Made by a program: the position numbers and the translations under genes
Shown: in pieces, positions 33,428-36,735 of the stretch
How the letters are laid out: every line of letters begins with the position of its first letter
How positions within the stretch are numbered: the first letter of the stretch is position 1
From: Acidobacteriota bacterium
GTDB taxonomy: Bacteria > Acidobacteriota > UBA890 > WLXD01
Direction: 5' to 3'
DNA length: 64,000 nt
Assembly (NCBI GenBank): GCA_965205505.1
Contig: CBDBHB010000006.1
Coordinates: 460,175-524,174, forward strand
The notes under the pieces: generated by a model
Told to the model about the DNA's origin: nothing
Databases searched by the model: none
Seen by the model: only the letters and a program-made list of their open reading frames with translations

Positions 33428-34431
33428 GACCCTTTCTGGGCTGTAGCATGGGCGATCCCGCCGGGATCGGCCCGCAGATCCTGCTCCGCGCAGCTGCCGA
33501 GCTCGCGACTGCCGATTGCCTCCTTATCGGTGATGCTGCCGTATTCTCCAAGCACGCGGAATGCGCCGGTTTGAACCCTGATAGCTTCCGCGTGATCGAC
33601 GGGATCGACGCCGCGCAGCGCGCCCGCAGCACGGGTGATCGCGGTCCGTGGATGCTCCCGTGCACCGCCGCCGCGGAGGGCTTCCGCCCCGGGCACGCGC
33701 AAGGAACGCAGGGCCCCGCGGCGCTCGACAGCATTAACCAGGGCGAGCGCCTGGTACGCAGCGGTGAGGTCGACGCCCTGGTCACTGCCCCGGTCAACAA
33801 AGACCTCATCGCTACTGTTGAGCCGCGCTTCCGAGGACATACCGAGTACCTTGCTGAGCGCGCCGGCGTGGACACACCGATCATGCTCTTCGCCGGGCCT
33901 CGCCCGCACATCGCATTGCTCACCACCCATCTGCCCACCGCAACCGCGATCTCCCTCATTCGAACCGACTCCGTCGATGCGATGCTGCGCAGGTTGCACA
34001 TGCGGTGGGCGTCGTGCTTCGGGAAACCCCCGGTCATCGGCGTCGCGGCGCTCAATCCGCACGCCGGCGAGCAGGGACGGCTGGGCACCGAAGAAGCCCG
34101 CATTCTGTATCCGGCCATCGCCGCCACCCGTGCCGACGGCATCGATGCTCGAGGCCCCTATGCCGCCGACTCCATCTTCCTCCGCTCTGAGCTCGACGTG
34201 ATTCTCGCGCTCTACCATGACCAGGGCACCATCCTGGCGAAGCGCGCGCCCTGGCCCACGGTGAACCTGACGCTGGGCCTGCCTTACATTCGCACCTCGC
34301 CGGATCACGGCACGGCGTACGACCTTGCGGCATCCGGTACGGCCGATCATCGACCGATACTGGCGGCGATGGAGCTGGCGGCCGAACTAGCGAGGGGTGG
34401 AGGGGGGCGGAGAACACACCCATCCCCTTAG
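33424..34431 (+). CDS. pdxA: 4-hydroxythreonine-4-phosphate dehydrogenase family
   Basis: MGDPAGIGP, TAPVNK, GHTEYLA, LNPHAGE, YHDQG and IRTSPDHGTA motifs. The last codons run through the left arm of the downstream inverted repeat. Confidence 0.92.
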   Translation: MRPFLGCSMGDPAGIGPQILLRAAAELATADCLLIGDAAVFSKHAECAGLNPDSFRVIDGIDAAQRARSTGDRGPWMLPCTAAAEGFRPGHAQGTQGPAALDSINQGERLVRSGEVDALVTAPVNKDLIATVEPRFRGHTEYLAERAGVDTPIMLFAGPRPHIALLTTHLPTATAISLIRTDSVDAMLRRLHMRWASCFGKPPVIGVAALNPHAGEQGRLGTEEARILYPAIAATRADGIDARGPYAADSIFLRSELDVILALYHDQGTILAKRAPWPTVNLTLGLPYIRTSPDHGTAYDLAASGTADHRPILAAMELAAELARGGGGRRTHPSP

Positions 34432-34545
34432 GGCAACGTCACCGTTCTTGGTCGATCAGCGTCCTAGCTCGCGCGTCTCGGGCGGAGGTTGGCGAACGGA
34501 GGGTGTGGCGAGGTTGCCTACAGGGGATGGGTGTGTTCTCCGCCC
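34405..34545 (+). repeat. Structured palindromic module A (24-bp perfect arms around an ~90-nt core)
   Basis: GGGCGGAGAACACACCCATCCCCT (34405-34428) is the exact reverse complement of 34522-34545. The core is homologous to module B. Confidence 0.85.
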
Positions 34546-34602
34546 AGCACCGTTTTCGCTATCGGCGCCGCTTCAATGGCCCGGCATCGGGGCGTTGATC
34601 CG

Positions 34603-34818
34603 ACACCGTAGGGGACTCTTGCTACTCGACGCCGAAGTACGGCGGCGGGGAGCGTCGACTCCAACACCCCGCCCACAAACAAGGACCCCAGAGGGGTCCG
34701 AGGACTGCGGCTCGCCCTCGGTGCCGCGAACGTCAGCGCGTTCAACACCGCCTCCTCTTCAGCAGGAGTCCCCCTGTAGGTTCTGAGTCGGGAGCGGGAG
34801 CAGTCTCCCCCACGGTGT
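34603..34818. other. Multi-hairpin, pseudoknot-capable structured segment (candidate ncRNA or MITE)
   Basis: Closing stem GGGGACTCTTGCT (34611-34623) / AGCAGGAGTCCCC (34761-34773); alternative outer pairing 34603-34615 / 34806-34818; several internal hairpins. Confidence 0.55.
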
Positions 34819-34823
34819 GGCTA

Positions 34824-34964
34824 GCGCGATGGGTGGCGGTGTGCGTGAAGACAGCCTCGCCACACCGACCGTTCGGAGGCCGACGCCCGAGACGCGCGAG
34901 CAACCCAGCCGATCTATCACCAAGCGGTGACGCTGTCACTCACGCACACCGCCACCCATCGCGC
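34824..34964 (-). repeat. Structured palindromic module B (25-bp perfect arms around an ~90-nt core), inverted homolog of module A
   Basis: GCGCGATGGGTGGCGGTGTGCGTGA (34824-34848) is the exact reverse complement of 34940-34964. It abuts the smpB TAG on one side and CTAG (34821-34824) on the other. Confidence 0.85.
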
Positions 34965-35426
34965 CTACCTACGCCGTCGCAGAGCCTGCTCCACATCCCG
35001 CTCCACCGCCTCGCGCTTCAGGATGTCGCGCTTGTCATAGTTTTTCTTGCCCCGCGCCACCGCGATCTCCACCTTGGCGCGACCGTTGCGGAAGTAGATG
35101 CGTAGAGGTACGAGGGTGAAGCCCCTTTCTATCTGGCGACCGAACACACGATCGATCTCACGCCGCTTCAGCAAGAGTTTGCGGACGCGCTCCGGGTCGT
35201 GCTGATTGTGCTTGCCGGCTGCGGGATAGGGGCCGATGTGGAGGTTGTGCAGCCAGACCTCGCCGTCTGTGATCGAGGCGTAGGCATCCTTGAGGTTGGC
35301 ATTTCCGAGGCGTAGAGACTTCACTTCGGAGCCCAGCAGGACGACGCCGGCTTCGTACGTATCGAGGAGCTCGTAGTTCTTACGCGCCCGACGATTGTTC
35401 GCGACCACCTTTAGGTCCTCGGCCAT
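34965..35426 (-). CDS. smpB: SsrA-binding protein
   Basis: NRRARKNY, EAGVVLLGSEVKSLR, RVRKLLLKRREI and ARGKKNYDKR motifs. Confidence 0.97.
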   Translation of the reverse strand: MAEDLKVVANNRRARKNYELLDTYEAGVVLLGSEVKSLRLGNANLKDAYASITDGEVWLHNLHIGPYPAAGKHNQHDPERVRKLLLKRREIDRVFGRQIERGFTLVPLRIYFRNGRAKVEIAVARGKKNYDKRDILKREAVERDVEQALRRRR

Positions 35427-35430
35427 AAGC

Positions 35431-36735
35431 CTACAGACGCACGAGGTTCGGCGGCGCTTTCCCTTCGACGACGTTGCGCGTATCCACAACAAGCGGCGAC
35501 GCAGCAACAACGCCCGCCCAGTCGATATTGCTGTGGTCGGTGCCCACGACGACACAGTCCGCCTCGGCACAGGCCTCGATCAGCCCGTCGATGGAATGCA
35601 GTGGACCGAGACCTTCGATGTTTTCGAGCGCCGGCACGAACGGATTATGGTACGAGACGTCGGCGCCCTTGGCAGCCAGCAGCTGCATGATGTCGATGGC
35701 CGGCGATTCGCGCGTATCATCAACATCTCGCTTGTACGCCACGCCGATCATCACGACGCGTGAGCCGTTAACGCTCTTCCGTTGATCATTGAGCGCATCA
35801 ACTACCTTCTGCACGACGTGGTGCGGCATGCCCGCGTTGATCTCGGAGGCCACCTCGATGAGGCGGGCGTGATAGTCGAGGGTGCGTACCTTCCAGGTCA
35901 GCTAGTGCGGATCGATCGGTATGCAGTGTCCACCGAGCCCGGGCCCCGGGTAGAAGGGCATGAAGCCGAATGGCTTGGTAGCGGCGGCACGGATCACCTC
36001 CCACGAGTCGATGCCAAGCCGGTCGCATATCAGCGCCATCTCGTTGGCCAAACCGATGTTCACGGCGCGAAACGTGTTCTCGAGCAGCTTCACGAGCTCA
36101 GCGACGCGCGGCGAGGACACAGCATGCACCGTACCCACGATGGTGCCATAGAGCGCCGTCGCCACATGGGTGCATTTCGTCGTCATGACCCCGATGACCT
36201 TGGGCGTGTTTTCGAGCGTGAAAGTCTCGTTTCCAGGATCGATGCGCTCGGGGGAGAAGGCGAGGAAATAGTCGCGCCCGGCTTGGCGTCCGTGGGTCTC
36301 CAGCCTCGGCAACAGCACCTCTTCGGTGGTACCCGGGTACGTGGTGCTCTCGAGAACCACGAGCATGTCGTCGTGCATCGCCTCGGCTACGCGATCGGCC
36401 GACGCGACGACATACGAAATGTCAGGATCGCGGGTCTTGCTAAGCGGCGTCGGCACGCAGATGTGGACGCTGTCTGCGGTGGCGATGACGGCCGCATCGG
36501 TGGTTGCCTCGACCCGTCCGGCCTCGACCTGAGCGCGCAGGCGCTCTGAAGCGGTGTCGGGTACGTACGACTCGCCCCGGCGGATCGCCTCGACCTTGGA
36601 GTTGTCGATGTCCAGCCCGGTTACCCGGAAGCCCGCCTCCGCAAAGCTCACCGCCAGCGGCAAGCCCACGTATCCGAGCCCCATGACGCAGACATGGGCG
36701 CTGCGATCTTGGATACGAGTGAGGAGATCGGACAT
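35431..36735 (-). pseudogene. Nucleotide-sugar dehydrogenase (WecC/TviB/WbpA type) interrupted by an in-frame TAG at 35902-35904
   Basis: GLGYVGLP, ICVPTP, LESTTYPGTT, FSPERIDPG, GLGGHCIPIDPH*LTWK, and GVAYKRDVDDTRESP in the same frame after the stop. Confidence 0.85.

Follow-up and report, generated by a model that had tools for sequence, protein, structure and literature searches.

Why should two long hairpins of the same size stand in opposite orientations at the facing 3' ends of two convergent genes in an Acidobacteriota genome? The question is raised by a window of 64,000 nucleotides, the whole stretch of DNA analysed here (contig CBDBHB010000006.1 of assembly GCA_965205505.1, GTDB lineage Acidobacteriota; UBA890; WLXD01). 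In this window an initial annotation had described a structured module, A, behind pdxA and a second, B, behind smpB, and had proposed an undescribed structured family, either an RNA element of the 3' untranslated region (3'-UTR) or a non-autonomous mobile unit. On the whole, the modules prove to be a lineage-specific family in two genera of one Acidobacteriota family. Judged by its sequence conservation the element is evidently under selection, and the reading that we favour, tentatively and at slightly less than an even chance, is a lineage-specific family of cis-acting RNA hairpins in 3'-UTRs or intercistronic regions. The modules and the two genes they follow are located in the window as below.

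34405..34545, plus strand: module A (class I), 141 nt, identified by inverted repeat, fold and a covariance-model match of 95.3 bits
34824..34964, minus strand: module B (class II), 141 nt, identified by inverted repeat, fold and a covariance-model match of 90.8 bits
33004..34431, plus strand: pdxA open frame, taken from the list of open reading frames and counted from the first start codon, the true start being probably later
34965..35570, minus strand: smpB, from the same list, matching PF01668 SmpB with E = 1.4e-55

Pfam confirms that the two genes are pdxA (PF04166) and smpB (PF01668), convergent as described before, and a check by inverted repeats and by sequence recovers the positions, 141-nt spans, arms and closing helices that had been given for both modules. 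In module A the arms 34405-34428 and 34522-34545 form a perfect outer stem of 24 bp, and the closing helix pairs GGCAAC (34432-34437) with GTTGCC (34513-34518) around an interior at ~34438-34512. In module B the arms 34940-34964 (5') and 34824-34848 (3') are 25 bp long and 100% complementary, with GACAGC/GCTGTC (34932-34937 with 34850-34855) as the closing helix. Both share one plan, a bulge of 2-3 nt inside the stem and then the 6-bp closing helix around an interior of ~78 nt. The computed folds reach -100.3 kcal/mol (z -10.6) for A and -105.3 kcal/mol (z -9.9) for B, and both beat their shuffles (z -9 to -10.6), with 0 of 200 shuffles folding as well. When the two interiors are aligned, each in its own orientation, long invariant blocks alternate with short variable linkers, which bears out the earlier description. 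The modules also meet the ends of their genes: the stop codon of pdxA (TAG, 34429-34431) lies inside module A, the last ~8 codons of the frame being the 5' arm of the module, and the stop codon of smpB (TAG on the minus strand, 34965-34967) abuts the arm of module B.

The module had been described as present twice. Searches with blastn, nhmmer and covariance models detect seven in the window's genome (5.98 Mb), namely A, B, C6:165351-165495, a facing pair at C9:545620-546090, C9:3105806 and C9:942095, and altogether 45 real copies were collected from the two genera and from metagenomes, two false matches (at one orthologous coding site, 27-29 bits) having been removed before. The element is 118-151 nt long, with arms of 15-35 bp (the closing helix counted where contiguous) and mostly 0-2 mismatches. 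Two covariance models were built, R1 from 19 copies and R2 from 34, and the E-values of their matches reach 1e-18 to 1e-23. Modules are present in five of five genomes of the window's genus (genus 1) and in three of three genomes of a second genus of the same family (genus 3); the covariance models find none in the other three genera of the family, nor in 15 genomes of the sister family. In a sample of the phylum (151 genomes, searched with R2 under stricter filters) only the two module genera match, and the 145 genomes from elsewhere in the phylum give 0 matches. A strict motif scan of species-representative genomes returns six stretches, all in two records titled Acidobacteriota bacterium, and a motif scan of metagenomes returns five; plasmids, phages and viral contigs give no module match. 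Since the genome searches score 27-150 of several thousand first-look candidates per genome, copy numbers outside the window's genome are lower bounds, and misses are possible.

Is the family already described under another name? With Rfam 15 at gathering thresholds the window contains only one tRNA; between 33800 and 35600, with E up to 10, only plant miRNA hairpin models appear, at 31-42 bits against cut-offs of 137-168, and six further module loci have no match. No Rfam family thus reaches its threshold, and the modules keep their standing as an undescribed structured family. Literature listings and abstracts, the level at which the literature was searched, contain no such element for Acidobacteria.

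The stems carry much of the case for selection. In almost all copies the outer stem has 21-32 bp with 0-2 mismatches. Each stem had been thought peculiar to its module; actually, the stems fall into sequence classes that recur between species and are typified by their 5' arms, GGGCGGAGAACACACCCATCCCCT behind pdxA, GCGCGATGGGTGGCGGTGTGCGTGA behind smpB and GGCGCAAGGGTCAAGGGCATC behind polA, with others besides. Between orthologues the arms are 0.79-0.92 identical, above the cores with 0.70-0.81, and the third codon positions of pdxA and smpB have an identity of 0.53-0.68. Because arms and interior both exceed this third-position level, both are under constraint. On the pdxA side, the orthologues keep a mismatch-free outer stem of 23-24 bp in three of four species, with one T-T mismatch in the G002 copy beside pdxA, and their arms differ from those of the window's genome (G000) at 3-5 positions. 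Compared pairwise within classes, the stems show double changes with pairing kept at 222 positions, wobble pairs at 17 and broken pairs at 72, counted over related pairs and so not as independent events. Over outer stem and closing helix together, both sides have changed in 106 cells, where shuffles give 35.5 (and 0 of 500 reach the observed count), and 82% of cells are paired against at most 46% with the partners slid. The closing helix is 91% paired, with 5 of its 8 pairs changing on both sides, and together with the base of the outer stem it shows 91-98% of cells paired. The covariation reported from two copies is therefore borne out for the outer stem and the closing helix. Short similarities of the type CACAC/GATGGGTG had suggested that the stems of classes I and II might be the same helix with caps at opposite ends, an idea that was dropped.

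The interior is the most similar part across the stem classes. On the sense strand it counts G 1362, C 996, T 915 and A 423, i.e. it is G/T-rich, and the sense strand folds better than its complement in 37 of 43 copies, with a mean advantage of 9 kcal/mol, an effect that is weak in the second genus and is measured on copies which share ancestry. The earlier statement that G-U pairs favour the sense strand is upheld for this part of the module.

Position and orientation were scored against heuristic stand-ins for genes, namely frames open for 80-90 codons or more and rich in G+C at the third position. Thirty of 37 copies (genus 1 and metagenomes) lie 0-100 nt past the stop codon of a same-strand gene; among ten further copies seven follow a sense gene, one stands at a distance of 131 nt and two were left unassigned. 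Many of the 37 are orthologous, and they represent ~17 independent loci with ~14 obeying the rule. The sense orientation seen at pdxA and smpB is thus a trend of the whole family. The gap is 0 nt, or gene and module overlap, behind smpB in three species, behind pdxA in four, and at the C6 copy. Facing pairs between convergent genes, each member in the sense of its own gene, occur at three loci in genus 1, including pdxA/smpB and the C9 pair with its orthologues, and at two loci in genus 3; as the members of such a pair are opposite within a few hundred bases, orientation is set by the gene and not by the direction of replication. The copy at C9:3105806 is intercistronic between co-directional genes, with the GGAGG and start codon of the next gene directly behind it. 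In addition, 8 of the 37 copies have a same-strand intrinsic terminator 120-183 nt downstream, which places those copies inside the transcript.

The position at stop codons, the orientation linked to the gene, the occasional downstream terminator and the intercistronic case together speak for a role within the upstream gene's transcript. In the cis-acting RNA reading each copy would be transcribed in the 3' untranslated or intercistronic region of the preceding gene. A very stable stem (21-32 bp, mostly perfect, plus the 6-bp closing helix) would begin at the stop codon or a few bases past it and would form a barrier at the 3' end of the message, blocking 3' exonucleases, or serve as a double-strand processing site, and it would display the conserved G/U-rich apical domain of ~78 nt to a putative factor. 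At smpB the transcript would run through the gene, module B, a spacer, a conserved tail and a terminator, and module A would do the same job for pdxA. Copies would spread and be lost by duplication, in tandem or of whole segments, by recombination where flanks are alike, and by deletion, no dedicated transposase being apparent. The anatomy of the modules, the family, its conservation, the compensatory changes of the stems, and position and orientation are observed; that the element works at the RNA level, as barrier or processing site, and that a trans-acting factor reads it is what we infer.

Several observations weigh against this reading. That the modules are transcribed we infer from their position alone. 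Six of the 37 copies lie behind no sense gene, and one more is split from its gene by an inserted insertion sequence (IS). A terminator stands between gene and module in 3 of 37 copies by the scan; at least two copies of genus 3 and one further copy of genus 1 show this order, and such modules would be reached by read-through only. The modules themselves are not flagged as terminators and have no U-tract (the scan allows loops of 3-8 nt and by design excludes the module), and their 3' flanks show no conserved T run. The A/B pair is dispensable in G004, a close relative, where only a decayed module A with its 3' arm gone is left. The conserved fold that had been proposed for the core is not recovered either: among the cells of the three interior helices tried, 73.5% pair, and shuffles reach 72.4%, in an alignment of diverged interiors that is uncertain and made of few and related copies, and the covariation claimed earlier does not extend to this part. 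The helices in question, a CACC/GGUG hairpin, a GCUCR/YGAGC helix and an inner GUCU/AGGU helix, were rejected as showing covariation not above shuffles, and RNAalifold on 49 rows retained the stems alone. Finally, the stems do not share the sense-strand preference of the interior, since G-U and A-C mismatches are equally frequent in them (14 and 15 among 970 positions).

The same equality is predicted by a palindrome that works at the level of DNA, as a hairpin or cruciform or as a single-stranded fold at replication, with its interior recognised by a protein; such an element could be a recombination, topology or replication site, or a non-autonomous unit moved in trans. About half of the compensated changes (113 of 222) are of the transversion type, i.e. 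purine-pyrimidine swaps, as if one arm had been corrected against the other, and arm-to-arm correction in a DNA palindrome explains them more easily than stepwise selection on RNA. Together with perfect stems lacking a preference for G-U over A-C, and with an interior that is conserved in sequence while no RNA fold is supported for it, these swaps keep a DNA-level hairpin alive. It would also suit the frequent inverted pairs, 140-420 bp apart, the copies at rearrangement and deletion junctions, and those copies of genus 3 that lie behind a terminator. However, orientation within facing pairs follows the adjacent gene rather than replication, the G/T skew of the interior is tied to the sense strand, and the arms differ between classes, so that they are not the site of one protein; nor does the genome, 96% complete, show a Y1/RAYT gene, a target duplication or an autonomous element with the arms. 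On balance we hold this explanation to be unlikely, if a serious contender.

What lies between the two modules? Their 278 bp of intervening DNA carry a third conserved piece, here called the tail, which holds the terminator of smpB and had been overlooked.

34546..34668, no strand assigned: left part of the middle, weakly conserved and near the neutral level
34669..34775, minus strand (that of smpB): the tail, a conserved element of ~105 nt which starts GGGGGACTCCTGCTGAA and ends in an intrinsic terminator
34776..34823, minus strand: spacer from module B to the tail, 0.66-0.74 identical to orthologues, with indels

The smpB side is thus laid out as smpB, module B, spacer, tail and terminator, then follows the poorly conserved stretch (34546..34668, 0.55-0.66 identical to orthologues, where third codon positions of the two genes reach 0.53-0.68), and then module A, facing the opposite way behind pdxA. 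The terminator hairpin of the tail occupies 34699-34683 and is followed by TTGTTTGT, the sequence staying T-rich to ~34673; a terminator scan of 33900-35600 returns two overlapping sites, both in the tail and on the minus strand. The tail is 0.75-0.87 identical to its orthologues. Copies of it are found behind the polA module in G003, at two further module loci of G002 and on one metagenome contig, and in the four relatives searched they occur only beside modules. A consensus fold from eight tail sequences shows little covariation, with little variation to test it on. Neither the middle nor the tail seems to be coding, as the frames vary between copies and the terminator falls inside them, which was read from the frames with no formal test. 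A transfer-messenger RNA (tmRNA) was also considered, as smpB is usually near ssrA and a GGGGAC... start occurs in the middle; ARAGORN and Rfam find none in the window, and the tmRNA of the genome lies on another contig with 159 bits.

The tail, with its identity between orthologues, a plausible fold and its own terminator, invites the idea of a processed small RNA, in which the stem would be cleaved and an apical domain of ~90 nt, joined by the tail at smpB and polA, released as a 3'-UTR-derived RNA that would work in trans, either as a sponge for a protein or as a regulator by base pairing. With 24 bp or more, a stem offers sufficient length to a double-strand RNase, the interior is conserved across classes whose stems differ, and seven copies per genome would be a low number in keeping with such a regulator. 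Yet the core has no extended complementarity to other sites in the window's genome, its interior has no covariation-supported fold, and a scan limited to the sigma-70-type consensus shows no promoter-like site in the region. We regard a processed small RNA as distinctly unlikely.

The other half of the initial proposal, a mobile unit, finds little in the data. Inspection by eye of the flanks of 43 copies reveals no consistent flanking direct repeat that would be a target duplication; class II copies only have TAG (or TGA) on both sides, one of the two being the stop codon of the gene. All 5' arms searched by blastn-short against the window's genome have only chance-level matches of 14-16 nt outside the modules, which leaves no sign of an autonomous partner there. 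The Y1/RAYT family (PF01797) has 0 matches in this genome (96.3% complete), and a control found the family in 6 of 14 reference genomes. An IS of the IS256/Mutator family (PF00872, E 1e-58) sits inside the arm of a diverged module of G003 (L078:2026-3429). It was rejected as the autonomous partner, being an independent insertion with its own imperfect inverted ends of ~31 bp and a 9-bp duplication.

Could the modules then be decaying MITEs (miniature inverted-repeat transposable elements), their transposase lost and the copies left as neutral relics? The size of ~140 bp, the terminal inverted repeats, the intergenic location and the presence or absence between species would suit such an origin, and the IS256-family insertion in one copy marks these sites as hit by mobile DNA. 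However, arms and cores are conserved above synonymous sites, the stems stay perfect through many double changes, and the copies are biased in orientation behind genes. Target duplications and IS ends shared with a partner are missing, and the copies share the interior but differ in the arms, the opposite of what ends recognised by a transposase would lead one to expect. A neutral relic of this kind fits poorly, and we consider it improbable.

Comparison with other bacterial palindromes helps to place the family. Correia elements of Neisseria (CREE/NEMIS) are intergenic units of ~100-155 bp with inverted ends of ~26 bp, which are co-transcribed with neighbouring genes and form long hairpins that RNase III is able to cleave, altering message stability; they number hundreds of copies, with conserved ends, a TA target duplication and a site for integration host factor (IHF). 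The modules resemble them in size, inverted ends and a long intergenic hairpin, but have seven copies per genome, class-specific ends and no duplication seen, and possess a conserved G/U-rich interior of ~78 nt and a strict placement at stop codons. The repetitive extragenic palindromes (REP) of proteobacteria, with their BIME and REPIN-RAYT arrangements, stand at the 3' ends of genes, often as two sequence types paired in inverted orientation and separated by conserved pieces, and have been proposed to act in 3' message protection, in termination and on translation near the stop codon; they measure 20-40 bp, are highly repeated and are linked to RAYT (Y1). Palindromes at 3' ends and inverted pairs of two types are the likeness here. 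Unlike REPs, the modules are 141 nt long and few, with seven copies in a genome having no PF01797 match, and neither a 20-40-bp high-copy unit nor a RAYT is found. Enterobacterial repetitive intergenic consensus elements (ERIC, also IRU) are imperfect palindromes of ~127 bp in transcribed intergenic regions, at low to moderate copy number, conserved at orthologous sites between species and with compensated stem changes. Size, orthologous conservation and stem compensation are shared with the modules, but there is no sequence relation by Rfam or BLAST, and ERIC forms one long imperfect stem, whereas the module is a perfect stem with a large conserved domain that appears unpaired. By analogy, the element may work like these intergenic palindromes of other bacteria (Correia, ERIC, REP/BIME).

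The attC sites of integrons are imperfect palindromes of 57-141 nt, defined by an outermost RYYYAAC ... GTTRRRY and arranged in same-direction cassette arrays; they keep structure over sequence, follow genes in a single orientation, and it is the folded single strand that is recognised. Modules of class I recall them by AAC...GTT in the closing helix. In the modules, however, AAC/GTT lies inside the 24-bp outer stem, in the inner closing helix of some classes only, other classes have AGC/GCT, and the copies are single or in facing pairs with no same-direction arrays.

The history of the loci shows how the copies come and go. At pdxA/smpB the unit of A, middle and B is orthologous in G003 and G002 with 70-73% identity, a conservation across species which the initial annotation had missed, and G002 has an additional tandem module there. 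In G001 A and the middle are present without B, and the TAG of smpB is directly followed by the sequence that follows B in the window; one metagenome relative has A and half of B. Two modules of relatives are missing in G003, with 10-18 nt of their 5' arms left, and a duplicated module plus tail with identical flanks is also found. G004 has no module at four loci examined; the idea that it lost all copies along with a trans factor was dropped, as the genome searches score only part of the candidates. At C9:3105806 the alignment shows nearly identical flanks in G004 and G000, and the ~125 nt between them are unrelated, as after an exchange of the whole segment. The genes on either side of this copy (L054, with L118 as its counterpart in G004) are members of a very large group of paralogues, each genome giving dozens of matches, and several diverged modules adjoin genes for Rieske/ring-hydroxylating oxygenases. 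Paralogous gene pairs may have been copied together with their modules, or modules may have passed from one such pair to another.

Directly at the TGA of an amidohydrolase-like gene stands the C6 copy, which we read as a gain: a module is absent here from the four relatives, and the gene's native end is similar to that of smpB. To the left of the module, a segment of ~160 bp of the gene (L016:1325-1485) is inverted relative to four relatives of the same genus, and in the closest relative the DNA that here follows the module on the right is found on another contig, so that the module marks a rearrangement junction. Nearby, beside a tetR-family gene, a lower-GC segment of ~126 bp (L016:1660-1785) has the inverted ends …TTGTCAAGTTAA… / …TTAACTTGACA…; it occurs also at two other places of G004 and may be a separate small repeat or operator region.

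The cis-acting RNA reading has a bolder form, in which the modules would be a new class of bacterial cis-acting RNA, a G/U-rich domain of ~78 nt mounted on a long perfect helix at stop codons and read by a lineage-specific factor. This factor would be a double-strand RNase releasing a 3'-UTR-derived RNA, or a protein coupling translation termination to the fate of the message, and module, tail and terminator would form a portable 3'-end unit copied by recombination. We offer this form as speculation and think it rather unlikely as a whole. The noncoding biology of the Acidobacteriota is hardly explored, and most members met here are known from metagenome assemblies only. Against this background the family is a clean case of a selected non-coding element, with perfect stems across species, a strict relation to stop codon and orientation, and no transposase. 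If it acts on the 3' ends of messages, it would provide a compact natural 3'-UTR cassette from a GC-rich phylum and would add an example to the old debate on the purpose of intergenic palindromes in bacteria; should it be a DNA-level site, the perfect upkeep of one arm against the other, together with the facing pairs, would suggest an undescribed activity that recognises hairpins. An entry in the libraries of RNA and repeat families would keep such loci from being read as anonymous intergenic DNA and would flag an extension of PdxA that is probably spurious.

This extension concerns the product of pdxA, which matches PF04166 PdxA with E = 2e-74 over residues 170-459 of 475. The Pfam match stops 16 residues short of the stop codon, and the pdxA frame terminates within a module at all three orthologous loci too. 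In four of four species the last ~8-17 residues of the predicted protein (e.g. ...GGGRRTHPSP) come from the 5' arm of the module (34405-34431; L012, L013, L014), and this C-terminal extension is probably a translated bit of the element rather than a part of the enzyme. In the second genus, at two loci of G010 (L061, L062), the module is found inside a larger inverted repeat, with a T-run terminator before it and a mirrored copy after it on the other strand, and the two copies flank a TonB-dependent-receptor-like gene of 3.5 kb. Around most modules, purine-rich words like GGAGG are frequent within ~12 nt before the 5' arm, and the word (C/T)(G/C)AGG is frequent 7-13 nt past the 3' arm; the element may extend ~20 nt beyond the stem on each side, or may prefer such contexts.

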